A DNA stretch of 64,000 bases, from assembly GCA_963718615.1 (NCBI GenBank), contig OY970368.1, forward strand, positions 4,576,001 to 4,640,000. Reading direction: 5' to 3'. Source of the stretch: an uncultured cyanobacterium (GTDB taxonomy: Bacteria > Cyanobacteriota > Cyanobacteriia > PCC-9006 > JAAUQQ01). Positions 9,491-41,665 of the stretch are shown piece after piece (the stretch's first letter is position 1; every line of letters starts with the position of its first letter). The notes under the pieces were generated by a model, which ran no database searches, was not told the DNA's origin, and worked only from the letters and a program-made list of their open reading frames with translations. The position numbers were made by a program, and so were the translations under genes.

Positions 9491-10540
9491 TTAAAGAGTA
9501 GGCTCCAAAGCTTCTGGCTCTTCCGCAACCTTATCCTCTGGCGTGGGAGTTTTGCCATTCTTCGCCGCTGGCGGACTAACCGCAACCGTGCCATAGAGGT
9601 CAAACCCCTCCCGATAGGCCGCACTGGCAAATCGCGGCAAAATCTCTTGGCTAAAGGCTTCCGCTGCTTTTGAACGATAGCGGTTGGGGTTGTAAATCAC
9701 CGAGAGCGTCCGCCGTACCGTTAGTCCATCCACAAAGGCCCGATGGAGCAACTCAATTTCCAGCTCCTTCTCGATCGCCGAAATCGACACAAACGCCGCC
9801 CCCAATCCGGACTGCACGGCATTTTTAATCGCCTCGATGGAATTTAGCTCCATCTCAATCCGCAGTCGCCGGGTTTCAATGCCACAGCGGGTCAGCACCT
9901 GGTCAATGACTTTACGAATGGTGGACTGAGAATCCAGGGCAATAAAGTCCAGCTTATACAAATCCTCAATTTGAATGCGCTCCCGCTGGGCCAGGGGGTG
10001 AAAGCTCGGCAAGATCAGCGCCAGCTCATCTTCCGCATAGGGCACCGTCACCAGCGCATCCTGTAACTCAATGGGGACCTCTCCCCCAATAATCGCCAGG
10101 TCGATCTGCCCATTGGCCACACTCCAGGAAGTCCGCCGGGTGGAATGGACATGGAGCTGAACGGCCACATCCGGGTAGCGTTTGCGAAACAGCCCAATCA
10201 TCCGAGGCAGGAGATACGTGCCCGTGGTCTGGCTAGCGCCCACGATCAAGGTGCCCCCCTGGAGGCTTTGCAGGTCTTCGATCGCTCGACAAGTCTCCTG
10301 ACAAAGGCTAAGGATTTTCTCTCCGTAGCTCAGTAGCAGATGGCCCGCTTCCGTGAGCTGAGCCCGTCGCCCCCCTCGGTCAAACAGGGGAACATCCAAC
10401 TGTCGCTCTAAGTTTTGTACCTGAAGACTTACCGCAGGCTGAGAAACATATAAACTATCGGCAGCCCGCTTAAAGCTTCCTTCAGCGGCGATCGCCTTCA
10501 AGATCCGTAACTGATCCAAAGTAAAGGGAAGATCAGACAT
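9491..10540 (-). CDS. rbcR: LysR family regulator RbcR/Ycf30
   Basis: [38 protein letters not shown]; start set at ATG 10540. Confidence 0.85.
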
Positions 10541-10681
10541 ATCAGCTCTCAATCGCTTAATAGAAGCTGGGCAGAAACTCTTATGCTTAAATCGGGAACG
10601 CTGAAGGCAGACGCTCACCCGACAATCCGACTATTGAATACTATGCCTTTAGGGGCAGCCCACGTTGCAAATCTAGAATAA

Positions 10682-11995
10682 ATGTTAAGTACAGATATGA
10701 GCTGGGAGGTTGTCCAAGATTTTCTGAATGTTTCAGGGATCAAAGGAGTGGCTTTGATCGATGGACAATCACGCCCCTACTTTCGCGATATCGAAAAGAT
10801 CCTTAATGCCCAACAACGGGAGGCCCTCGCCCAGGGGGTCTGGCAGGTCTTAGAAACGATTCCCGAAAGCTTTGAATCCTTTGAATTTCAGTTTTCTGGG
10901 ACTCAGGTTTATATCCACAAGATGGCCCAGGGGTTAATTCTCCTCATCCTCACCCACGATACGCTGATCTATCCAGATTATTGCGAAGCCTTTACTCGAT
11001 TGAAGGCATCCTTTGAAGCCGATAGCAGTGCCACCCTCGAAGCCTTTCGACGGTTGTTGGGAGCACGCAACACGACGGCAGCGCCTTTAGACACTAGCGC
11101 TTTTGCGCCCATGGCGGAGGTCAAGGCTGCACCGCCCTCTCCCCGAGATCCGGCCCGACCGGTTCCGGCAGAGCGTCAGGTGGCCCAGGCCATGGTCCAG
11201 AGCATCGCTGAGCAAAATGGCAATGGTGGGGCGGCCTTTGCGACGGTGGCAGCCATTCCCGCAGAATCTCCGCCAACGCTAACGCCCCCTAATCCGGACC
11301 CTAAACCCACGGCGCGGCGGCGCAATCCGGAAGATACCCTACCGGATCTGTTTCCTGATGATGATACTGCTTCAGCGACAGCGCCCTCGGCGGCTAAGAG
11401 ATCAACCGCAGCCCCCCAGGCCATAGCCCAGTCAAAGACCCAGCCAAGTCCCCAGCTAAGTCCCCAGCCAAGTCTCCAGGTAAAGCCCCAATCCGTTCCG
11501 CCATCGGTTCAGCCCCTCAGCCCCTCACCTCCGGCTGTCGTCCCGCCACCGGTCCCGCCGGAGCCTGTCTTGCCATCGATTGGGGAGTTAACCCCAAGTC
11601 CAGCCCCAAGTCCAGCCCCAGGTATAGCCCCAGATATAGCCCCAGGTCCAACCTCATCTTTGGGCACAATCTCCTTAGAAACCTGGCTCAACACCCTCAA
11701 TACCTTGGGCCAAGCCGCTGTCCATTACCTCGGTCGTGCTGTCGTGGCCAACTACTGGCGCACCACCCGTCCCCCTGCGGATTGGCTGGCTAGCTTTGAA
11801 ATCGAGCGATCGGGTAACATCCAGTCTGACCCCCAGATCTCCCTCAGTCAGAGCATTTCAGCTACGCAACAGGCGGACCTACAAACCTGGGCTCAGCAAT
11901 TTATCCAGCGCTGTGGCCGAGTGATTCGAGACTTTCCCCAACTGGCTCAAACCCAGGGTCTTACGCCAGAACAATTGGAGCTTTTAGACCTCTAA
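10682..11995 (+). CDS. hypothetical protein, roadblock-like N-terminus, Pro-rich linker (first gene of Pap-like operon)
   Basis: FLNVSGIKGVALIDG N-terminus; co-oriented with ferredoxin/V4R genes. Confidence 0.6.
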   Translation: MLSTDMSWEVVQDFLNVSGIKGVALIDGQSRPYFRDIEKILNAQQREALAQGVWQVLETIPESFESFEFQFSGTQVYIHKMAQGLILLILTHDTLIYPDYCEAFTRLKASFEADSSATLEAFRRLLGARNTTAAPLDTSAFAPMAEVKAAPPSPRDPARPVPAERQVAQAMVQSIAEQNGNGGAAFATVAAIPAESPPTLTPPNPDPKPTARRRNPEDTLPDLFPDDDTASATAPSAAKRSTAAPQAIAQSKTQPSPQLSPQPSLQVKPQSVPPSVQPLSPSPPAVVPPPVPPEPVLPSIGELTPSPAPSPAPGIAPDIAPGPTSSLGTISLETWLNTLNTLGQAAVHYLGRAVVANYWRTTRPPADWLASFEIERSGNIQSDPQISLSQSISATQQADLQTWAQQFIQRCGRVIRDFPQLAQTQGLTPEQLELLDL

Positions 11996-31842: not shown

Positions 31843-32208
31843 TCAGCGAATTTGGACTGTTTCTACGTTAATCTCACCGACTCTTTGCAACTGAGCGTCA
31901 TTACTGAGTAATGTAGCGTCTACCAGGGAGGCTGTGGCACAGATAATTGCATCTGGCAGTTTTAGGCGATATTGCTTGCGAAGGGCGATCGCCATATTCT
32001 TAACGCTCTCGCTCAATCCGACCACCGTGACCTGAGCAAGAAACTGCCGAACTCTTGATGCTTCTTCGTCTGTAAGCGATGGATAGGAGAGCATTTCCAT
32101 TTCGCTAATGACGGATAGGTAAAACTCACCTGTGGGTAAAGGTTGCAGCAAACATCCACCCAGCAAATACAGTGCGACGTTCGTATCCAAAACGTACCGT
32201 TCTGCCAT
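31843..32208 (-). CDS. PIN domain (VapC) toxin
   Basis: YVLDTN, SVISEME, LKLPDAIICATA, LLSND. Confidence 0.9.
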   Translation of the reverse strand: MAERYVLDTNVALYLLGGCLLQPLPTGEFYLSVISEMEMLSYPSLTDEEASRVRQFLAQVTVVGLSESVKNMAIALRKQYRLKLPDAIICATASLVDATLLSNDAQLQRVGEINVETVQIR

Positions 32209-32411
32209 TACGCCCACTCATCTCGCATCTGCCGTTGGTACTCCAGAGGATCTTGCTGGAGGCCAATAACGCCGCTGAACTGATTCAGATCGGTGCTGGC
32301 AGGAGTGCGGGGTTCTTCGGCTTTGAGGAATTGCGATCGCAGAAAGCCACGCTCCTCTTGAGAGAGAGCCTGAATCATTGACCAGATGGACTGTACAAGC
32401 TGAACGTTCAT
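32208..32411 (-). CDS. putative antitoxin
   Basis: 67 aa ORF ending DPLEYQRQMRDEWA; stop overlaps the PIN start codon. Confidence 0.75.
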   Translation of the reverse strand: MNVQLVQSIWSMIQALSQEERGFLRSQFLKAEEPRTPASTDLNQFSGVIGLQQDPLEYQRQMRDEWA

Positions 32412-32605: not shown

Positions 32606-32845
32606 TTGACAATTCCAATGAAAGAGGCGATCGCTCTTGGACAGAAGGCGATCGCGGTGTTGCTGGAGCTGCGCAAGTTGGATTTGAGCAAGCGGCCTGG
32701 GTTGAGTGAGCTGCTGGATTGGGTAGGGTATTTGGAGGCGGTGCGGATACCGGTGGAGCGGTTGGAAGAGCTGCCGCATTTGGGGGCGTTGTTGAAGCAG
32801 GAGGGCGATCGCAAGCGGGCGGTGGAGGCGATGGGGAGGAGTTGA
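32606..32845 (+). pseudogene. 3' fragment of MoxR-family AAA ATPase gene (copy 2)
   Basis: ELRKLDLSKRPGLSELLDWV..L..LPHLGALLK..GD resembles the MoxR lid domain; Walker motifs absent. Confidence 0.75.
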
Positions 32846-32922: not shown

Positions 32923-33174
32923 ATGCATACTCTTTCTCTGCCGTACCCAGACGATCTACTCATAACCTCTGGTCAGTCCCCCCAGGCCCTGGAAGCTGAG
33001 CTTGCGTTCCTTCTTGCTGTCAAGCTATTTGAATTGCGTCGTTTATCTCTAGGTAAGGCAGCGGCTTTCTGCAAAATGAAGAAGCTTCAGTTTATGTATG
33101 AGCTTGGGCGGCTCCAGGTTCCTGTGATTAACCTAGATGACGACCAGATTGCGGATGAGCTAAGCGATGACTAA
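32923..33174 (+). CDS. UPF0175 family antitoxin
   Basis: LAVKLFELRRLSLGKAAAF....F...LG. Confidence 0.85.
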   Translation: MHTLSLPYPDDLLITSGQSPQALEAELAFLLAVKLFELRRLSLGKAAAFCKMKKLQFMYELGRLQVPVINLDDDQIADELSDD

Positions 33175-33661
33175 AGCCGCAATCGTTGCGGACAGCAGCC
33201 CGCTCATTTCCCTAGCGATTCTTGAACAGCTTGACCTGTTGCCCCAACTCTATCAGCGGGTTCTGGTTCCGCCAGCCGTTTGGGATGAAGTGACGGTGCA
33301 GGGAGTAGGCTTGCCGGGGTCTTTGGCTGTTAGCCAGACAACATAGTTTGAGATCCAAGCACCCGAGCCTGCAATTCTTCAGCCTTTGTCGATTTTGGTT
33401 GATCGTGGCGAGGCAGAGGCGATCGCCCTGGCCCAATCCATTCCGGACAGTACAGTGATGCTGGACGATGCCCGAGCAAGACGGGTGGCAGAACGCTTTG
33501 GAATTCGGCGAATTGGAACGTTGGGAATCTTGCGTCGCGCAAAGAAGATGGGCTTGATTGCTAAAATCAAACCTTGCATTGAGCAATTGCAGGAGAATGG
33601 AATTTACATTAGTCCCAAGCTGAGCGAGGCGATTTTGCGTGATGTGGGCGAAATTGAATGA
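33167..33661 (+). pseudogene. DUF3368 PIN-like toxin with in-frame TAG at 33344
   Basis: IVADSSPLI..., GEAEAIALA, LDD..ARR..GTLGIL in one frame, broken by one stop (likely TGG>TAG). Confidence 0.8.
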
Positions 33662-34083
33662 ATGACGCCGAAAATATCAACCGGCTACACCTGAAGCTAT
33701 TACCAGACTTTCTCTGGCTGCTGTACCAGCGTCTACGGCGGCGGGGTTTTGTGTTGGGTCCGGAGGATTATTCGGCATTGCAGCAGTCGTTGCGGTTGGG
33801 ATTTGGTTGGTCGTCCCAGGGGGCGTTGCGGGAGTTGTGTGGGTCGCTGTGGGCGAAGTCGGTGCGGGAGCGGGAGGCGTTGTTTGCGCTGTTTGATCAG
33901 CTTGTTCCGCAGGAGGAGGGTTGGGAATTTGAGGGGGACGAGGCAATAGGAGATGAGGTAATAGGAGAGTTAGGGGAGGTTAGGACTGAGAGGATTGATG
34001 AGCCAGCGAAATCTGAGGCAGAGACGTTCGGTGTTTTGCTCAACATTCATGCGTCGTTCAAACACGCTACTACGTTCAGATAA
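33658..34083 (+). pseudogene. N-terminal fragment of vWA/CoxE-like MoxR partner, truncated at island border (~34030)
   Basis: LYQRLRRRGFVLGPEDY...LWAKS N-terminal domain; vWA domain absent; base composition shifts near 34030. Confidence 0.65.
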
Positions 34084-34158
34084 CCAAGATCGTGCGGCTA
34101 TTGTATCAGTGCTTACTTATGTACTCTTGTGGAAGTCGCCCGAGAGTAAACATCGCAC

Positions 34159-35196
34159 ATGAAACGATATGCAAATCTACCACTCAGTTTGCCTCGAGTA
34201 GACTTAGGGCTTATTCCTAAGGGATATCAAGGTACCCAAGCAACACTAGCACATATCAAATCATTAATTCGAAAAGGTGCGAAGGACTTCTATGTTCGCC
34301 AGAAGTCGATTGATATTTTGCTAGAAAAATCAGTCAAAGCCAAAGACTACCTTGGAGAAATTAGAGCAATCTTTGAGTGGGTACAAAAAACAATTCGATA
34401 CACGAAAGATCCCTTTCGTGTAGAGATGCTCCACTCTGCTCGGCGTCTATTAGAATTGCGCGCGGGTGATTGCGATGATATGACAATTCTACTCGGTTCT
34501 ATGCTGGAATCCATCGGGCATCCCGTACGCCTAGTCGTAACTGGCCCTGATCCGCTACGGCCTAAACTCTTTAGCCATATTTATCTGGAAGTCTTTCACC
34601 AAGGGCATTGGATTCCACTCGACGCCACGATGCCACATCCTATGGGGTGGGAGCCCAAAACCTTTATTAAACAAGTTATTCATATCGAGAGGAGCTTACA
34701 CATGTTGAATCAACATCAAGAACTGCATAGGTCTACAGATCTATCGTCGCTACCTGATTGGCTAACAAACTTGATTGTCAACATTCACAAGGGAAGTATT
34801 AAGCCCAAAGATCAACGAATTAAACGTTTGTTGGGCTTGCTACATCAACGACAGTTACAGCATCAGAACCGCTGGCTGATAAGAACCTTAGAGTTTATAC
34901 ATCAGCGAGGACTGTCTCACCACCCTCGCCCTGAGCTAGCCAAACGAGTTGAAAATTTGATGCATCACTGGAAAATACTATCAGCAGCATTGGATTCATC
35001 AACATCGCAACAAAATTCCACCTATCCTACCATCACTATTCCAGTTAAATCGGCATCGAAAGCTTCTATAAAAAAGGACAAAATCTTACAGGCAAGACCT
35101 GTCCGCCCTGTAAAAGTTAGCCCTGTTCCAGGGGTGACGGTAAGGCGTGTTGCAACAATCAATCAACACTCGGTTCCATCTCAAAAGCCATTATGA
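34159..35196 (+). CDS. transglutaminase-like (Cys-His-Asp) protein
   Basis: IRY..DP, GDCDD, SHIY, WIPLDAT; basic C-terminal extension. Confidence 0.85.
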   Translation: MKRYANLPLSLPRVDLGLIPKGYQGTQATLAHIKSLIRKGAKDFYVRQKSIDILLEKSVKAKDYLGEIRAIFEWVQKTIRYTKDPFRVEMLHSARRLLELRAGDCDDMTILLGSMLESIGHPVRLVVTGPDPLRPKLFSHIYLEVFHQGHWIPLDATMPHPMGWEPKTFIKQVIHIERSLHMLNQHQELHRSTDLSSLPDWLTNLIVNIHKGSIKPKDQRIKRLLGLLHQRQLQHQNRWLIRTLEFIHQRGLSHHPRPELAKRVENLMHHWKILSAALDSSTSQQNSTYPTITIPVKSASKASIKKDKILQARPVRPVKVSPVPGVTVRRVATINQHSVPSQKPL

Positions 35197-35549
35197 GACC
35201 TATTCAGAATTCAGGTAACTACGATCGCCTGCTTCCAGCCCAATCAGCCACTCCCAGTAAACTCAATCAGGAAGCCAAGCAAGGAAAAGAACTCTATCGA
35301 AAGTTTAATCACTTCGAGGCATCTCAAACGTTCACAATCCAACATTCTCGGCTGATACCTCCCGTTGTTGTTAGCCTTGGTGAGCTTGTCGGAATTATCT
35401 ACCGATCTGATAAAGATCAACTCGGAAAACCGCAAGTCTATATCCATTTTATGCAAGATCCGCCTCAGTTAGTCAGTAACGTCGAAGGGAGTCAGCTTTA
35501 TATCGTAGGTGGTAGTTATCACATCACTTGTAGAGGCATTGAGGGCTGA
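35193..35549 (+). CDS. hypothetical protein
   Basis: ATGA overlap with upstream gene; LGELVGIIYRSDK..YIH..PQL..G.QLYIVGG.Y. Confidence 0.75.
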   Translation: MRPIQNSGNYDRLLPAQSATPSKLNQEAKQGKELYRKFNHFEASQTFTIQHSRLIPPVVVSLGELVGIIYRSDKDQLGKPQVYIHFMQDPPQLVSNVEGSQLYIVGGSYHITCRGIEG

Positions 35550-35586
35550 TCTAATCGTTAACTTATAAACCTTGGAGGGAAATTAT

Positions 35587-35868
35587 ATGACATGGGGTAA
35601 GCCATTAGGACTAGATGAGTTGATGATTATCAATCCAGGGCCATCCAATGGGGATGCCTACTTATTGGGCGAAGATGGAACGCTTTACCAGGTTCAGGGA
35701 TTGGGTGAGATAGGCGAATTACCCCAGGATCAACAGTACTTATTGGGTGAGGATGGCACGCTGTATCAAGTTCAGGGGATTGGTCTTGGAGGACGGCCTT
35801 ATCCCCTGTCTGGAAGGCATAGCTGTCAATGTAGAAATCGATCAGCTAGCACTGAAGGTTCCTACTGA
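35587..35868 (+). CDS. small repeat protein with two YLLGEDGTLYQVQG motifs
   Basis: GGAGG RBS before ATG 35587; exact 14-aa internal repeat. Confidence 0.75.
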   Translation: MTWGKPLGLDELMIINPGPSNGDAYLLGEDGTLYQVQGLGEIGELPQDQQYLLGEDGTLYQVQGIGLGGRPYPLSGRHSCQCRNRSASTEGSY

Positions 35869-35944
35869 AAGCTAGCGTTAAGCAGACTGATGATCAATGC
35901 TCACTGACCAACTATAAAGACATTATTGAACAAGGAGTTCGATC

Positions 35945-36694
35945 GTGGGAAAAGTACAAGGTGTTAAGGAAAAGCTTCACTATCCGATTTACGACGCTTT
36001 TTTTGTAAAGGGTCGCCCCTCACCTGATCAGCTTAAAACTGATACCAATAAACCTCAAACCTTCATGGAGGTGATGACTGATCCGAGAATGATCCGTTTC
36101 TTTGTGGATGTTCAGAACAAAACTCGACTGGAAACAAACTTGCAGGCATCGGGTGTTTTGCCTAGTCTCAATACATTTGAGGCTAGGGCTTTACGAGTTG
36201 TCGTTAGTCCACCCTGTTTAGCAGCTCCGCCTACATCAATCGAAAAAGTTCTAGCTATCACTGAATCGTATTGTAAAAACAGTTCTCCAACAGCAGGGAA
36301 GCTTGAAAATGACTCGACAAAAAGAGAACTGTTCGAGAAGCTAAAAAGCGAATATAGTCAATGCAATGGAGACGCTAATCTTGTTCTTTCTGAGTTGATT
36401 TACAACTCCGTGACAACCTTGCTGGTGGGCGAGAAAACTATGATTGAAATGCCGACATACTTCTTTCCGGGTGGTGCCGGTGTTTATCCAGGAAATGGCA
36501 GTATTTCTAATCATGGTGAACCAGATCCTATGGCAACGTTTCGATTCGCTGAACCTGTCATTATCGAGCCTCAGCAAAATTTTCGAGTCGAAATGCTATT
36601 CCCTCAGGGTGTTCCAAAAATTCTGTCTCAAGTCGAAGGTGTATTTAGAATTTGGGTTGTGCTAGATGGTTACTTAACAAGAGATGTACAGTAG
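35945..36694 (+). CDS. hypothetical beta-rich protein, putative single jelly-roll capsid-like 1
   Basis: AAGGAG RBS + GTG; YD..FF..KT..ETN..G.LP..F pattern; C-terminal FAEPVIIEPQQNFRVEM..IWVVLDGY; fold is inference. Confidence 0.55.
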   Translation: MGKVQGVKEKLHYPIYDAFFVKGRPSPDQLKTDTNKPQTFMEVMTDPRMIRFFVDVQNKTRLETNLQASGVLPSLNTFEARALRVVVSPPCLAAPPTSIEKVLAITESYCKNSSPTAGKLENDSTKRELFEKLKSEYSQCNGDANLVLSELIYNSVTTLLVGEKTMIEMPTYFFPGGAGVYPGNGSISNHGEPDPMATFRFAEPVIIEPQQNFRVEMLFPQGVPKILSQVEGVFRIWVVLDGYLTRDVQ

Positions 36695-36733
36695 GGCTCT
36701 CAATTAGGTCGAAATTATTTAGGAGAGAATACA

Positions 36734-37660
36734 ATGAATCACATGATGGGTACAGGCTATCTCGGCGAAACGAAAATGGGGCCTGATGGCAATCTGTACG
36801 AATGGGTGGAGGGCATTGATGGACTGGGAAATTCGATTGGTTTCTGGAGTAAGTTCAAAAAAATTGGCAAAAGAGCCCTAAGAACGGCTGCTCGCTATCA
36901 TCCTGCTGTTCAAGCATTGAAGCTCGTAAGACGTGGTATTTCTGGCACCGATGGACTAGGGGCTTTGTACCAATCTCCTGATGGTAGCCTCTACCAAATG
37001 CAGGGGCTCGGTGTCGATGAAGAGGGTATGGGTGAAGTCGGTCTGGAAGCAGATGACTTAACTCAAATGATGGGTTTTGGCAGCTATGTGGGTGAAACGC
37101 GCGTAGGGCCTGATGGCAATACTTATCAATGGGTTCAGGGCGTGGATGGTTTAGGCAATCCGATTGGCTTTTGGAAACGCTTTAAACGGTTTGCGCGTAA
37201 GGCAAGACGCTTTGTCCGTAAGGCGTTGCCAGTTGTGCAACAGTTTGCCCCCCTTATTCCTGGCGGAGCGGTGGTGTCATCAGCACTGAGAACTGCTACG
37301 CCGTTTCTTAGACGGGCAGGAGTGGCGGGCGATGGCTTGGGTGCCCTATACGAGGCTCCAGACGGAACCTTGTACCAAATGCAGGGACCAGCAGATGAGG
37401 AAGCCATGCAAGGATTTGCCGAAGATGAGGACATGGCGGGTTTTGCTGATGAAGAGTTACAGGGGTTTGCCGAGGATGAAGAGATGGCGGGCTTTGCCGA
37501 AGATGAAATGGGCGAGTTTGCAGATGATGAGGTCTTGCAGGGCTATGTTCGGCAGGATGGCATGGATGGATTAGCAGCCTATGTACCACAACAGCCACAG
37601 AGCACACCTTGGTATCAACAACCCAGTCAAACTCCCAAAATTTGGGAAGCCCCCTGGTAG
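36734..37660 (+). CDS. repetitive polyprotein: two cationic amphipathic segments, DGLG motifs, acidic GFAEDE repeats
   Basis: two ~110-aa units plus an acidic tandem tail; AGGAGAG RBS. Confidence 0.8.
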   Translation: MNHMMGTGYLGETKMGPDGNLYEWVEGIDGLGNSIGFWSKFKKIGKRALRTAARYHPAVQALKLVRRGISGTDGLGALYQSPDGSLYQMQGLGVDEEGMGEVGLEADDLTQMMGFGSYVGETRVGPDGNTYQWVQGVDGLGNPIGFWKRFKRFARKARRFVRKALPVVQQFAPLIPGGAVVSSALRTATPFLRRAGVAGDGLGALYEAPDGTLYQMQGPADEEAMQGFAEDEDMAGFADEELQGFAEDEEMAGFAEDEMGEFADDEVLQGYVRQDGMDGLAAYVPQQPQSTPWYQQPSQTPKIWEAPW

Positions 37661-37734
37661 AAGAACGATAGAAGAGTTTGTGAGCGACTTATTTCTATCC
37701 AGAAAGCACTGAGAAATGTAACGAGGTCAGTTCC

Positions 37735-38484
37735 ATGCAATTTCAGCCAGCTCCAACCCAGATGAGGCGGGCATCCCCTTCTATGACAGGGGGAATAGCA
37801 ATGCCTGTTGATGGCCCAACAACGAAGGAAATTCCCTATGATTATGTAGCAAAGTTTGCGCTTCAAGGGAAGGCTGCCAATCGAATTCAGGATGTTATCA
37901 ACATTAGTGTTGAGGGCTCTTTTGTAGCGACGGCGATCGCCTACAGTTTCATTCCTGCATCGCTACCGATCAGAAATCGTATACTGGAGCCAACTCCCTC
38001 ACCAGAGCCAACTCCCTCACCAGAGCCTATTGTAAGAGAAGTTCCTCCTGAGAGGAGGAGGGATTCAAATCCTCTGCTCGCGTTACTCGAACCTTTCGTA
38101 ACATCCTCCCTGATTCCGCAGAATACTCCGACGGAAAGCCAGAGGAAGCAACTCGAACTTCGGCAGAATCAGCAGCTTGAATTGCTGCAAATGGTTGCTG
38201 AATGTTCGCTGATTAAATTATGCGGCATTCACTTTAAATACAGCATTGTAGATAGTGGCAGCGGTCGAGAGTTGCAAAATCAACCGATTCACAATATTGC
38301 AGGATTAGGAGAGTCGGGGGGCGACAGGCCCTTCCGCCCCTTGGCTAAGCCGATGATGTTTATGCCGCGCTCAACTATCCGCATTGAAGTTGAGGAGATT
38401 TCCGAAGGGCCACTCTATGCTGGGGCGGAACTCTATGTCGTCTTGCATGGTTATAAGATGCTGGGTTATGGCACGGGGGTGTGA
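37735..38484 (+). CDS. hypothetical beta-rich protein, putative single jelly-roll capsid-like 2
   Basis: PYDY...F....I; C-terminal LAKPMMFMPRSTIRIEVEE..LYVVLHGY parallels 35945; fold is inference. Confidence 0.55.
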   Translation: MQFQPAPTQMRRASPSMTGGIAMPVDGPTTKEIPYDYVAKFALQGKAANRIQDVINISVEGSFVATAIAYSFIPASLPIRNRILEPTPSPEPTPSPEPIVREVPPERRRDSNPLLALLEPFVTSSLIPQNTPTESQRKQLELRQNQQLELLQMVAECSLIKLCGIHFKYSIVDSGSGRELQNQPIHNIAGLGESGGDRPFRPLAKPMMFMPRSTIRIEVEEISEGPLYAGAELYVVLHGYKMLGYGTGV

Positions 38485-38942
38485 TGAGTCTTTGTCAGGT
38501 TTGTGGTGTTCCTCTAGATGCGGACTATTTCGATAGTGCGAGTATCAAGCCTGCTCCTCAAAATGTGGGTGAAGAGGTGGAGTTGGCTCAATATCATCTA
38601 CATCCTCAATATTGTGGGGCTTTGCTCTGCTTTGCTCAGTATGTCAAACCTGAGGATGAGGCTTTGGCAAATAGCAATATTTTGGAAACGCCTGGGTATG
38701 AATGGGCTGTGCTTTGCAATAACCAAGCCCGTGATCCCTATCTGCCAACGAATCTCATCTTAAATCCTTGGGGACAAAACAATTTGCCTGTTCACTTGCG
38801 ATTGGAGGAGGGCTGTGTGGTGAGGTTGGTGGTACGTAGGGTGTCAGCTTCACCGGAACCGATGCTGCAAAAGGTGGGGGGGCGGTTGCAAGGTCGCTAT
38901 TGGTACAACACCAATTATGGTGGTTTGCCGAATCGCTTATAG
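38481..38942 (+). CDS. hypothetical beta-rich protein with N-terminal CxxC, putative jelly-roll 3
   Basis: overlaps upstream stop; PVHLRLEEGCVVRLVVRR..VGGRLQGRY. Confidence 0.5.
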   Translation: MMSLCQVCGVPLDADYFDSASIKPAPQNVGEEVELAQYHLHPQYCGALLCFAQYVKPEDEALANSNILETPGYEWAVLCNNQARDPYLPTNLILNPWGQNNLPVHLRLEEGCVVRLVVRRVSASPEPMLQKVGGRLQGRYWYNTNYGGLPNRL

Positions 38943-38969
38943 ACACTGAATCACAAGAGAGAAAGAGAG

Positions 38970-40544
38970 ATGTATATCTATACTGACAAGCCTTTATCGG
39001 GAATTGAGGAGCCGTCAGTAGGGCTAGCGGGAGATCTCACAGAAAATTTCAACTTAAGTGAGTTTGCCTCTCGGGGAACGCCTGTACCTGCACAGTATCT
39101 CAGTAATGTGAATCGCTTGGCTAAAAATCTACAAGCTCTCAGAAATTATTTGGGAAAGTCAATTCATATTAATTCTGGATATCGTACACTAGCTCACAAC
39201 AGTAGTGTGAATGGGGCGACAACGAGTCAGCATTTACTAGCCAAGGCAGCTGATATTACCGTCAAAGGCATGATTCCAAGTGAGGTATATTGTGCCATTG
39301 AAACATTAATTGCCAATGGCCAAATGCAGCAAGGTGGATTAGGGCTTTATGCCACGTTCGTACATTACGACGTGCGAGATGCCAGAGCTCGTTGGAAAGG
39401 TAAAGGGTCTCTGGTGCCGAGTTGTGGACTCACACCTACAAAAACAATAAATACATTAGATCTGGAAAAAGCCGTTATAAAAAACAGCGAGTGGAGCCAA
39501 AAGCTGGGTTGGTCAGCCTATCTCGGCGCAATTATGGCCTTGGTAGGATATGTGCCATTGCCTTTTCCTAGTCTGAAAAACTTTGCAGAGGCGATCGCCC
39601 GTTGGCAAAGTCATCAAGGATTACTGCCCGCAGATGGCATAATTGGACCTAAAACTTGGGAGAGAATAAAAAAGAATACTCAAATACAACAACCTTTACC
39701 AATCAATCAAAAGCCAGCTAGATTAAGTATAGATCCTGAGACCCTTGAAAAGATTGGTCAATACGCCTCAATTATTGAACGAATTGCTCGCGATAAAGAC
39801 GTTGATCCAAGCATCATAAAAGGCATTATTGCAGCAGAATCAGGAGGTGACCGCTATAAAGAAGCGCCTAGTGGATATAAAGGCTTAATGCAAGCAAAAA
39901 AAACAACAGATCAATTTGAACCTGAAATTAGTATTCACGATGGAGTTGAAAAATTCAAGAAATTTAGAGAAAACTGGCTAGGCCCTCGACTTAAAAAGCT
40001 TGGGATTGATTTGAACGTTCTGGACAAGAAAACCATGGTTGCTTGGGTCACTACAGCTTACAATGCTGGTCATGTGACTGTTCTAAAAGCCGTGGAATAT
40101 GCTACGGCTTCAGGCGATCCTAAAAATTGGATGGCTCCAGAACATTATCAGCGAGCATTAATTTTTTCTGGAGGATACAGTATAAGCACTGCTAAGAAAT
40201 CTTTCTTTAAAAAATTGAGTGAAATTGAGTTAGTGGAAGAGGTAGCAAGGATAAAGCATACGAACATAAACGATCTTCAGAAAGGATATTCTTTTTCAAA
40301 CAAATGGGACATTGAGAAACTCAAGCAAGTCCTCATTAAAGAGGCCGCTAAGGAACAGAAACATTGGAAATTTAGCGGGAAAAAATGTCAATGGTGGCAA
40401 TGCCCTGATCCACCTTTGCTACAAGATATTCGCAGGCATTCATCTCGTTTATTGCTATATGCGGTTGAATTTAAGCGCGAAAATACTCCCAAGTACACTG
40501 GCAAAATCATCAAATATATGAATTATTACGATAAAGCAGATTGA
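38970..40544 (+). CDS. multidomain peptidoglycan hydrolase: peptidase M15A + PG-binding + lytic transglycosylase (SLT)
   Basis: SGYRT..SQH..AADI..FVHYDVR; DGIIGPKTW; IAAESGG..GLMQ..AYNAG. Confidence 0.88.
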   Translation: MYIYTDKPLSGIEEPSVGLAGDLTENFNLSEFASRGTPVPAQYLSNVNRLAKNLQALRNYLGKSIHINSGYRTLAHNSSVNGATTSQHLLAKAADITVKGMIPSEVYCAIETLIANGQMQQGGLGLYATFVHYDVRDARARWKGKGSLVPSCGLTPTKTINTLDLEKAVIKNSEWSQKLGWSAYLGAIMALVGYVPLPFPSLKNFAEAIARWQSHQGLLPADGIIGPKTWERIKKNTQIQQPLPINQKPARLSIDPETLEKIGQYASIIERIARDKDVDPSIIKGIIAAESGGDRYKEAPSGYKGLMQAKKTTDQFEPEISIHDGVEKFKKFRENWLGPRLKKLGIDLNVLDKKTMVAWVTTAYNAGHVTVLKAVEYATASGDPKNWMAPEHYQRALIFSGGYSISTAKKSFFKKLSEIELVEEVARIKHTNINDLQKGYSFSNKWDIEKLKQVLIKEAAKEQKHWKFSGKKCQWWQCPDPPLLQDIRRHSSRLLLYAVEFKRENTPKYTGKIIKYMNYYDKAD

Positions 40545-40723
40545 AGAAGGAAAATACGTACTAGAACAGACACAAAGTAGTAAGCAGGCTAAATATCATC
40601 AGGAACTCGAAAAAACAGCATCTTGATGTCAAAATTAGTGCTCTGAGAACCGAGCGTCGTCGAAGTCTATGCTTGCAGGCATGCTATTAAATTGAAAATT
40701 AGTAAGAGGTTGTAAACCTTGGC

Positions 40724-41653
40724 ATGTACATACTATTGGGACACAAATCAGCGGGAAATCAGTTAGCAGGACTTGGGCAAACGAAAGTAGTAGAAACTCA
40801 TTCACAAAGCTCAACCTCAGCTTTGACTTTAGCTGTCCCTAAAATGGTTAAAGTTGCCGAAACCTCTCCTTCGTTCAGTACTCTATACGTTGGGATTGAT
40901 CTGAATCCCGTTTGGGAAAACCGGAAAATTGATGGCAAATGGAAGCAGACTCGTGCCTATGCCTCACCCATGACGGGCATCTTCATTCCTAAAACCTATA
41001 TCCCTCGATCAACCGTCAACTTGATCTTGTATCTACATGGGTTTAAAGCGCCTTGTGGACTCGATGAAAAAGCGACGATTAACCAATACTGGAGCCAGGG
41101 TTACTTTAAATGGCTAAGAGAAGCCGTTAATGATAGTGGCCAAAATGTGATTCTTGTTGCACCAACATTGGGGCCTAGATCAGGTGCAGGCAAATTGATT
41201 CAATCGGGAGGATTCAATGCGTTTATCGATCAAGTTTTAGCGGCTCTCAACGCCTACAACCCGCTCAACAAAATTCCTTTTATTAATCGATTTACTCGCA
41301 ACCAATCGATAGGCAATATCATATTAGCTTGTCATTCTGGCGGTGGGAAACCAATGCGGGCGATCGCATCTCTAAATCCTAGTACCGACAGCTATGCCGC
41401 CCAGATCAAAGAATGCTGGGGCTTTGACTGCTTGTATAGCGGAGATGACGCCAACGCATGGCGCACATGGGCAAGCGCCCATCCCCAATCCAAACTTTTT
41501 GTCTATTACAAAAATTCTACCCATCGACAATCGGAACAGCTTCGAGACCAACGCCCTCACCTTAGTAACGTCTTTGTTCAAAAGTCCAACGCAAAGAATC
41601 ACTGCTCTGTTCCCAGTCACCATTGGAAAGAACGTCTTGTAAACATATCGTAG
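40724..41653 (+). CDS. alpha/beta-hydrolase-like protein
   Basis: LILYLHG, LACHSGGG nucleophile elbow, FDCLY, C-terminal His. Confidence 0.7.
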   Translation: MYILLGHKSAGNQLAGLGQTKVVETHSQSSTSALTLAVPKMVKVAETSPSFSTLYVGIDLNPVWENRKIDGKWKQTRAYASPMTGIFIPKTYIPRSTVNLILYLHGFKAPCGLDEKATINQYWSQGYFKWLREAVNDSGQNVILVAPTLGPRSGAGKLIQSGGFNAFIDQVLAALNAYNPLNKIPFINRFTRNQSIGNIILACHSGGGKPMRAIASLNPSTDSYAAQIKECWGFDCLYSGDDANAWRTWASAHPQSKLFVYYKNSTHRQSEQLRDQRPHLSNVFVQKSNAKNHCSVPSHHWKERLVNIS

Positions 41654-41665
41654 GAGAGCATAAAT

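Follow-up and report, generated by a model that had tools for sequence, protein, structure and literature searches.

What do three neighbouring genes for beta-rich proteins, here called A, B and C, do on the chromosome of a cyanobacterium? They lie in a stretch of 64,000 nucleotides (the window; contig OY970368.1, positions 4,576,001 to 4,640,000), part of a closed cyanobacterial chromosome of 6.10 Mb. The earlier note on this DNA, made from its letters alone, had suggested two major capsid proteins (MCPs) and a minor protein of a single-jelly-roll virus. The answer proposed here is a cellular one. The three genes belong to a core operon of seven, in the order TG-o118-o98-A-o308-B-C, which is syntenic in 50 loci from about ten bacterial phyla (coordinates in Table 1). 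Behind C stand one to six unrelated enzymes per locus, such as peptidoglycan hydrolases, patatin and proteases, which start with the tag MY[ILV]xTxEGLGQ. A and B are, with good probability, jelly rolls, judging from predicted structures. We suggest, at a probability of roughly 0.45, that the operon encodes a cell-borne jelly-roll particle or lattice carrying the tagged lytic enzymes, and that the transglutaminase-like enzyme TG processes or crosslinks them.

The operon and its two predicted jelly rolls

The 50 loci come from a scan for A of one genome per prokaryotic species, and the other core genes were counted by tblastn with the proteins of the window's island. TG is present in 47 loci, o118 in 46, o98 in 38, A in all 50, o308 in 45, B in 46 and C in 42. 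The misses lie mostly at contig ends; a verrucomicrobial locus, L047, shows A only. The hosts are cyanobacteria; Alpha-, Beta- and Gammaproteobacteria, including Methylomonas methanica NCIMB 11130; Nitrospira, Chloroflexi, Acidobacteria, Gemmatimonadetes, Rokubacteria, Armatimonadota and Verrucomicrobia; and Actinobacteria, including Mycolicibacterium vaccae. Across the loci, A is 46–74% identical to A of the window, and an identity of 50–60% is maintained over the ten or so phyla. The G+C content (GC) of the operon tracks that of the host, from 0.49 to 0.71, in 33 loci, with a median difference of +0.02. Since the operon is host-like in GC, the strong conservation of the core proteins points to purifying selection, not to recent spread. 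The local peptidoglycan enzymes and the regulator of the window are common to at most four of the 50 loci.

Six of the seven core proteins, among them A, B, C and o118, are outside any Pfam, NCBIfam, PADLOC or PHROG family. The sole PHROG match of A, B and C is a trivial one of 22 residues (E 0.013), and their homologues are called 'hypothetical protein' in every named case. A literature search over titles and abstract starts found no description of the operon, its proteins or the tag.

A and B share a layout, in which a hypervariable middle separates conserved N-terminal and C-terminal parts. All 83 invariant columns of A fall in residues 1–84 or 151–249 (33 sequences). In 35-row alignments across phyla, the two cores of A reach majority-residue fractions of 0.67 and 0.81, and its insert reaches 0.18; the corresponding values for B are 0.80, 0.82 and 0.21. 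The inserts range in length from 16 to 62 aa in A and from 11 to 101 aa in B. The EPTPSP repeat within the B insert is encoded by an exact 18-nt tandem (GAGCCAACTCCCTCACCA twice, 37987–38022). This exact duplication suggests that the exposed loop of B was recently expanded by a slippage-type event.

The AlphaFold2 models of A and B were built from 33-row alignments. The A model has a pLDDT of 68.7 and a pTM of 0.60, the B model 72.2 and 0.61. Each has eight strands, the third and fourth of which (joined by the D-E loop in jelly-roll lettering) are separated by a helical insertion. The best structural match of A, found by a search independent of Foldseek, is Orf virus D13 (Z 8.5, root-mean-square deviation 4.4, 151 aligned); PRD1 P3 follows at Z 6.6–6.8, and most other rows of that first search match the helical hairpin only. 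In a second-look search, the top ten rows all belong to the double jelly-roll capsid family (Z 6.3–8.4, 135–179 residues aligned), with Orf virus and vaccinia D13, SGIV MCP, PRD1 P3 and EhV MCP as members. The capsid-type matches of B are the SPMV coat protein (Z 8.8), SPV1 (6oj0_T, 8.7), D13 (8.2), P23-77 VP17 (7.9), HCIV-1 (7.9) and P23-77 VP16 (7.2). Its other top matches are peptidylglycine monooxygenase (PHM, Z 9.8) and a phage fibre domain (Z 8.5). One and the same jelly roll of D13 (9ikc_A) is matched by both proteins, over residues 23–219 for A (Z 8.5) and 29–219 for B (Z 8.2). The Foldseek lists against the PDB are rich in jelly rolls, with PHM the best row for B (3e-3).

At the sequence level, the similarity of A and B is reproducible, yet marginal. 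BLASTP aligns 59 C-terminal residues at 29% identity (E 0.11). With hhalign, 33-row alignments give E 0.11 (probability 0.5%), alignments of 51 and 47 rows give E 0.0021 (13.5%), and 51 A sequences against 83 B-type domains give E 0.0027 (11.3%). Every profile comparison pairs the same C-terminal stretch, HGEPDPMATFRFAEPV...RIWVVLDGY of A with LGESGGDRPFRPLAKPM...LYVVLHGY of B. A hidden Markov model of the A family finds nothing significant among 150 representatives of the B family (best E 0.011). Because fold, insertion site and matched D13 domain agree, and a marginal sequence signal is added, A and B are probably distant paralogues of shared ancestry.

Part of what the earlier note had read from the letters of A and B is borne out. 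Its three open reading frames (ORFs) are in place, and all the strings it quoted occur in the translations. The N-terminal YD motif it pointed to (PIYDAFF in A, IPYDYVAKF in B) is conserved in both families: Y16 and D17 of A are invariant, as are P34 and D36 of B, and Y35 of B is kept in at least 90% (33 sequences each). The long insertions in mid-protein, EPTPSP included, turned out to be the variable D-E insertions of both models, predicted to be exposed. The eight-stranded jelly-roll fold agrees with the models of A and B and with their matches to viral capsid jelly rolls, and the structures it had named, SPV1 and P23-77 VP17 and VP16, are among the matches of B. The C-terminal signature it had drawn through all three proteins holds, marginally, between A and B, and has no statistical support in C: against A and B, BLASTP returns nothing for C and hhalign gives E 0.19–0.22. 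A jelly roll in C, the penton or minor protein of the note, is putative. The C gene overlaps the end of B in the window, as B and C do in 20 of 41 loci. The database form of C (P0241) has 152 aa and starts at ATG 38484.

The families are large. A has 2308 homologues at E ≤ 1e-3 (of 2583 candidates), B 1226 (of 2733) and C 282 (of 303). A full HMMER pass with the B profile over 1.84 billion representatives yielded 442 clusters at E ≤ 1e-3, 186 of them at E ≤ 1e-30, each cluster being a representative at 50% identity. The searches with A (P0001) and C returned 100%-identical self entries. B retrieved no such entry of itself: its gene may lack a call in the source annotation or be called otherwise there, or the word index may have missed it.

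The seventh core protein, TG, belongs to the transglutaminase-like superfamily by its domain match and its catalytic triad, with catalysis itself predicted. The Cys of GDCDD, the His of FsHiY and the Asp of LDAT are conserved in at least 60–90% of 48 sequences, and the nearest solved chain, 3isr (E 0.015), aligns over the Transglut_core region. The o118 gene overlaps TG by 4 nt in the window and in 16 of 45 loci, and the two are fused into one ORF in 10 of 47.

The two repeat proteins, o98 and o308, have motifs in common. DGxLYQ occurs 2.48 times per 100 aa in o98 and 0.90 times in o308, against 0.06 in the background of all ORFs; for xGLG the densities are 0.65, 0.84 and 0.08. The enrichment is about 10–40 fold. 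Two of the o98 motif copies are encoded by the 48-nt direct repeat D3. In o308 the motif GPDGxLYxWVxG(I/V)DGLGNxIGFW occurs twice, with a basic helix after it; DGLGALYxxPDGxLYQMQG is likewise present twice, and there are acidic EDExMAGFA repeats. By hhalign, o98 and o308 match at 94% probability (E 2.7e-8), through these common repeats. The o98 ORF opens at TTG 35572, and the N-termini of its homologues favour ATG 35587. None of the seven core and three local tagged proteins has a signal-peptide-like or transmembrane segment (maximum KD19 below 1.5; 1.29 for o308).

Viral surroundings were sought for the operon as well. A, B and C have no relative in IMG/VR (2.9 million contigs), and A has none in INPHARED (50,697 phage records) or PLSDB. 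Within 10 kb of the operon, the 50 loci show no recurrent family of packaging ATPases, integrases, replication proteins or membrane proteins, a family being counted as recurrent when common to at least five of them; the only ATPases so found are sigma-54 activators. For comparison, published abstracts describe sphaerolipoviruses as having two types of MCP, an internal membrane and a genome of about 30 kb, and the PRD1-adenovirus lineage as having FtsK/HerA packaging ATPases in common.

The N-terminal tag and the enzymes that carry it

The consensus of the tag across loci is M-Y-[ILV]-R-T-x-E-G-L-G-Q-A-P. The strict pattern is found in 46 ORFs on the + strand and in two on the − strand, both of the latter just downstream of the operon in L035. 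Of the 199 ORFs within 6 kb downstream of C, a set that takes in spurious ORFs of GC-rich DNA, 92 start with MY[ILMVF]; of the other ORFs, 5 in 391 do so (odds ratio 66, p 1e-44). Among the 39 loci with at least 1.5 kb of downstream sequence, 37 have one to six tagged ORFs. The whole genome of the window (6.1 Mb), with 7497 ORFs, served as a control: the strict tag occurs in three, two of them in the island. The third match (2023105–2024277 of chromosome C1 in genome G000, 4106–5278 of L120) lies inside petH, the gene for ferredoxin-NADP reductase (CpcD and NAD_binding domains), downstream of its likely start, and was set aside as chance.

Beyond the tag, nothing is common to 49 aligned tagged proteins, in which only M1, Y2 and G11 are conserved. 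The domains that Pfam assigns to them are PG_binding_1 (5), OmpA (4), Aspzincin_M35 (3) and DUF3238 (2), with one each of Patatin, Amidase_2, VanY, M15_3, SLT, GH75, Amidase_6, PG_binding_3, Golvesin_C, DUF5995 and Trypsin_2. Beta-lactamase-fold and trypsin-like families also carry the tag. The second tagged protein of the window has no Pfam match at E ≤ 1; by eye only, its LYLHGF and CHSGGG motifs look hydrolase-like.

Regulatory genes differ from host to host. Homologues of the window's LuxR-type regulator stand beside the operon in four of the 50 loci, three of them cyanobacterial. Sigma-54 enhancer-binding activators take this place in Nitrospira, methanotroph and soil loci, and BTAD/SARP-type regulators in Chloroflexi and Acidimicrobiia. 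In 6 of 47 loci, the 700 nt upstream of TG contain a -24/-12 motif, with 15 + strand matches overall in 786,517 nt.

Table 1. Genes of the low-GC island in the window, with coordinates, strand and distinguishing features.
Feature	Position	Strand	Description
TG, transglutaminase-like cysteine enzyme	34159..35196	+	first core gene; Transglut_core (Pfam) at 48 bits (gathering cut-off 23), E 1.7e-12
o118, partner or C-terminal domain of TG	35193..35549	+	no known family
o98, small acidic protein	35587..35868	+	LGLDELMI(I/V)NP head; repeated DGxLYQxQG motifs
A, predicted jelly-roll protein 1	35945..36694	+	249 aa; hypervariable helical insertion at about residues 89-150, between strands D and E
o308, repeat protein	36734..37660	+	repeats D1 and D2; conserved C-terminus
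B, predicted jelly-roll protein 2	37735..38484	+	249 aa; hypervariable insertion at about residues 75-162, with EPTPSP repeats, between strands D and E
C	38481..38942	+	153 aa; N-terminal CxxCGxPxD motif; conserved YCG; translationally coupled to B
Tagged enzyme 1	38970..40544	+	starts MYIYTDKPLSGIEEP; strict tag; M15 peptidase, PG-binding and SLT lytic transglycosylase (Pfam); maximum KD19 1.49
Tagged protein 2	40724..41653	+	starts MYILLGHKSAGNQLAGLGQ; relaxed tag, counted by the MY[ILMVF] rule
Tagged enzyme 3	41666..42493	+	starts MYLLTDKQMDGLGKS; strict tag; PG-binding and VanY D-Ala-D-Ala carboxypeptidase (VanY E 1.9e-22)
o313, untagged accessory protein	42570..43511	+	one hydrophobic segment, KD19 2.03 at residue 249
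LuxR-type helix-turn-helix (HTH) regulator	43613..44074	+	end of the low-GC island; PHROG sigma-factor and HTH matches on residues 92-143

What the operon may encode

The proposal is as follows. A and B would be the structural subunits of a chromosomal module that also includes TG/o118, o98, o308 and C, and that would assemble into a proteinaceous particle or lattice with the hypervariable D-E insertions of both proteins facing outward. The assembly would carry the enzymes encoded just downstream, the tag MY[ILV]xTxEGLGQxP being the loading signal. TG would cleave at the Gly/Gln-rich motif or crosslink its Gln. The Gly-Leu-Gly/Gln motifs common to the tags, o98 and o308 could serve for docking, or be where TG cleaves or crosslinks, and o98 and o308 could be scaffolds or adaptors. 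A dedicated activator, LuxR-type in the window and a sigma-54 enhancer-binding protein or BTAD regulator elsewhere, would control expression, and the targets would be the envelopes of other cells.

We infer assembly, loading, processing, release and target from what was computed here, namely fold predictions, synteny, the tag, enzyme domains, gene fusions and couplings, and the absence from viral collections. A multi-subunit, exposed assembly is suggested by the invariant jelly-roll cores with their hypervariable loops, the repeat proteins, the coupled papain-like enzyme, the portable tag and the tight regulation. Attack on the envelopes of other cells is suggested by the enzyme repertoire.

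Several points weigh against this proposal. The confidence of the models is moderate (pLDDT 69 and 72), Foldseek against the PDB finds no match at E ≤ 0.001 for either model, and Z values of 7–10 fall in the range that the search tool itself gives as common for unrelated models (its note names values below 8). Non-capsid jelly rolls score equally well against B: besides PHM and the phage fibre domain, nucleoplasmin, GOLD, PNGase F (Z 7.8), the furin P domain (6.7) and the Ena1B/Ena2A pilins (7a02, 6.8; 9i0y, 7.2) fall within Z 6.6–8.1. By themselves, the structural scores do not tell 'capsid' from 'some jelly roll', and a capsid-like assembly of A and B is a possibility. Whether TG acts as protease or crosslinker is guesswork, as is the receptor of the tag, and no fold is assigned to C. 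Along with the core, the 50 loci share no ATPase, membrane protein, holin or secretion component, and for this reason no release route can be proposed. There are no immunity-like genes between the local tagged enzymes. Finally, the system is rare among the relatives of its host, A being carried by 1 of 401 sampled cyanobacterial genomes, the window's own.

Two kinds of known system bear on the proposal. Encapsulin cargo carries a cargo-loading peptide, according to PMC11866011. As in encapsulins, a putative shell gene here lies beside cargo genes with a short terminal targeting peptide, the system is cell-encoded, and no genome is packaged; the likeness is one of logic only. Encapsulin shells, however, have the HK97 fold, and none of the ten island proteins scanned matches the Pfam encapsulin family (Linocin_M18 and related). 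The tag here is N-terminal, the cargo would be lytic rather than redox or storage enzymes, five further core proteins are needed, and the hypervariable outer loops suggest an exposed particle rather than an intracellular one.

The other kind comprises type VI secretion systems (T6SS), extracellular contractile injection systems (eCIS) and tailocins. With them the operon shares a conserved structural block that precedes a variable set of enzymes (peptidoglycan hydrolases, phospholipases, proteases). A regulator of its own is another common trait, as is a patchy distribution with horizontal spread. The cargo of eCIS has N-terminal loading signals. The core folds differ, though; no sheath, tube, baseplate, spike or AAA+ recycling gene is found among the island proteins scanned with Pfam, PHROG, NCBIfam and PADLOC, and these systems differ also in that no immunity genes are seen locally.

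A more specific version of the proposal deserves tentative mention. The operon may encode a tailless icosahedral 'capsid bacteriocin', with a shell of two vertical single-jelly-roll proteins that is matured by TG, loaded through the tag of 12–15 residues with envelope-degrading enzymes, and released against competitors. Such particles would form a widespread, hitherto unrecognised cell-encoded class, and the module would be a capsid module of the PRD1/P23-77 lineages that was domesticated, or else a cellular relative of the ancestor of those capsids. The two-MCP capsids (Sphaerolipoviridae, with P23-77 VP16/VP17, HCIV-1 and HHIV-2; SPV1) likewise consist of two paralogous jelly rolls of about 170–290 aa and a third small protein, and have surface insertions at the top loops. 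Their structures match the B model at Z 7.2–8.7 and the A model at Z 4.9–5.6. Unlike the genes of such capsids, the operon shows no sequence or profile similarity to them, and it lacks a packaging ATPase, membrane or terminal proteins and a viral context; it is chromosomal, regulated by the host, and followed by tagged enzymes.

A further likeness is that to double jelly-roll proteins (poxvirus D13, PRD1 P3, the iridovirus and PBCV-1 MCPs), which are the best structural matches of A. Tandem fusion is the presumed route from single jelly rolls to double ones. Fusions of two domains in tandem occur in the B family, and in soil bacteria these variants would be double-jelly-roll-like. A and B of the window, in contrast, are single domains, and they match one jelly roll of D13 only.

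A reading without any shell we regard as somewhat unlikely. A, B and C would then be soluble adaptor or carbohydrate-binding subunits that, with TG/o118, recognise the tag and mature, activate or escort the enzymes, as a system for leader-dependent processing or as an export adaptor whose transporter is encoded elsewhere. Jelly rolls are common as binding modules, non-capsid ones score as high for B (PHM, Z 9.8), and assembly of A and B is hypothetical. Leader peptidases, among them the lasso-peptide B protein and C39, offer a parallel to a papain-like TG enzyme whose neighbours carry a leader, and by analogy this parallel would favour the soluble reading. The comparison of TG, with its predicted activity, to the lasso-peptide B protease and Bacillus Tgl rests on a Transglut_core domain with Cys-His-Asp beside a leader-like tag and Gln-rich motifs. 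Unlike in those systems, the substrates would be whole enzymes of 100–640 aa, not peptides, and no RRE/PqqD, cyclase or ABC transporter accompanies them. The soluble reading explains poorly why an operon has two to five jelly-roll domains, tandem fusions, inserts in the same loop and cores that are invariant across phyla. Two repeat-rich, scaffold-like proteins need a role too, and no transporter is conserved nearby in the 50 loci.

It is unlikely that A and B instead polymerise into a fibre (a jelly-roll pilus of the type of the Bacillus Ena appendages), sheet, coat or surface layer, crosslinked by TG via the Gln/Lys-rich o98 and o308, on which the tagged enzymes are displayed. Bacillus Tgl crosslinks the spore coat, and o308 has Q-rich repeats (LYQxQG) and K/R-rich helices near a transglutaminase-like enzyme. 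The Ena1B and Ena2A jelly-roll pilins are among the matches of B, and hypervariable exposed loops fit a surface structure. But the Ena matches rank below the capsid matches, the best rows of A are capsid-family proteins, there are no signal peptides, sortase-like signals or transmembrane segments, and the same gene set occurs in diderm and monoderm phyla.

Action on the producer's own envelope, as regulated autolysis or wall remodelling with hydrolases held inactive on a scaffold until triggered, is more improbable still. The identified domains mostly act on peptidoglycan, dedicated activators imply costly, conditional expression, and immunity genes are missing between the local enzymes, all of which would suit it. 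Yet enzymes without export signals cannot reach the cell's own wall short of lysis; the Patatin, GH75 chitosanase, M35 and trypsin-like domains are unsuited to self-wall remodelling; and the polymorphism, with one to six tagged genes per locus, looks like that of effector arsenals.

That A, B and C make up the capsid module of a virus of P23-77 or SPV1 type, integrated or defective, the direction in which the earlier note had pointed, is highly improbable and close to refuted: two predicted jelly rolls with viral capsid proteins among their best matches, a low-GC island of about 10 kb and peptidoglycan hydrolases downstream, as in lysis modules, speak for it, but the relatives missing from the viral collections, the lack of conserved packaging, integration, replication and membrane-protein genes near a chromosomal operon with tagged enzymes, its host-like GC, its host-type sigma-54 promoters and activators, the single copy of the jelly-roll gene in the window's genome, and the failure of a window scan to find any tRNA or flanking direct (att-like) repeat around the island all speak against it.

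If the assembly of A and B into a particle or lattice is real, the encapsulins with their HK97 fold and the injection systems derived from tails would be joined by a second, structurally independent kind of bacterial protein compartment or delivery device. A short, portable loading tag and naturally variable outer loops would be useful for engineering. Such an assembly would also bear on the origin of vertical jelly-roll capsids and on the transition from single to double jelly rolls, because the operon family holds single, multiple and tandem-fused B-type domains. Even without a shell, there remains a conserved seven-gene system in about ten phyla, with a polymorphic enzyme arsenal and six core proteins unnamed in four curated libraries.

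Operon variants and the surroundings of the island

The tandem B-B variants were followed with a metagenome scan, in which a 430-aa tandem protein found 68 loci. Of the 22 longest, 14 have enough context and show TG, o118, one or two A, the fused B-B, a third B and C; the remainder are cut by contig ends. The five examined in full have a short TG with one to four small MLYQDxLTG...YDGLGNP proteins after it, and in them A comes behind an o98-like protein. Tagged ORFs lie downstream of C in four of these five (L058, L059, L097 and L107), and none was seen in L091. Two further ORFs common to L058, L059 and L097 stand between C and the tagged genes. Pfam finds a tagged Trypsin_2 protein, a tagged PG_binding_1 protein and an untagged M35-like protein in L058. 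Among the 150 best B representatives, 94 have two matched stretches and seven have three; some two-stretch proteins of 250–340 aa may be single domains split by a long insert. The proteins with two B domains measure about 420–550 aa. Those with three matched stretches, considered as triple jelly rolls, proved to have two domains, the second split by an insert.

The verrucomicrobial locus L047, from a metagenome-assembled genome of Verrucomicrobiae, has its A homologue in a 328-aa ORF at 10001–10987 (57% identity in the best segment). TG, o118, o308, B and C were undetected within 10 kb of it, and A may exist outside the operon too.

Other comparisons yielded matches that were set aside. A profile search of the PDB gave nothing for B or C; for A it gave the designed propellers Ika8/Ika4 (E 4.8e-5), over the RIWVVLDG-type stretch only, which was treated as a WD40-like motif artefact. 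In BFVD, Foldseek matched B to a nanovirus 'nuclear shuttle protein' (E 8.2e-4, TM 0.28–0.41), which was not relied on. A profile-profile similarity between TG and o118 is explained by genuine TG-o118 fusions inside the TG alignment. The protein-atlas cluster of C, or of its homologue P0314, is labelled 'Viruses 67%' from three members with known taxa, a label that the IMG/VR scans did not bear out. Predicted complexes of A and of C with B as partner gave ipSAE 0.00 and 0.00, values obtained without controls that say nothing either way.

Two further gene types accompany the operon elsewhere. A conserved protein of 74–97 aa (…FVRFKVSDVTIP…LYGGDIVQGKVVD…), without a Pfam family, is encoded directly upstream of TG in 7 of the 50 loci, of Nitrospira type and among the soil variants (L015, 7801–8070; L058, 4305–4529); it is missing from the window. 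An untagged pair lies several kb downstream of the operon in nine loci, among them the Nitrospira and proteobacterial loci L015 (17027–20292), L009, L011, L016, L017, L026, L027 and L040. Its members are a protein of about 180–200 aa with TSNEG/TSNDG-type repeats and a weak BACON match, and an M23 peptidase of about 527 aa. The pair may be an unrelated module or a further accessory.

In the window, GC is 0.43–0.47 in the four 2-kb segments of 34001–42000 and 0.53–0.56 in the flanks, and all 12 ORFs of the low-GC block are on the + strand. Being GC-poor there, the island looks like a later acquisition in this genome. Its untagged accessory protein o313 has no Pfam match, and an o313 homologue adjoins the operon in one of the 50 loci, L024. 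A promoter and terminator scan found fewer sigma-70-like sites than in shuffled sequences and was uninformative. The flanks, read by eye from translations, hold ndhD-like, sufBCDS-like and sulfolipid housekeeping genes. Just upstream of the island, the small ORFs 31843–32217 (−), 32923–33174 (+) and 33386–33661 (+) look, by eye, like PIN-type toxin-antitoxin genes. A proline-rich frame of 172 aa at 44384–44902 (+) is probably spurious; antisense to it is a 136-aa ORF (44430–44840, −) that by eye resembles a toxin-antitoxin nucleotidyltransferase. A sequence of AGAGGCGATCGC type occurs in three copies, at 32623, 33415 and 39587, one of them within the low-GC island; their GCGATCGC core is the HIP1 palindrome typical of cyanobacteria.

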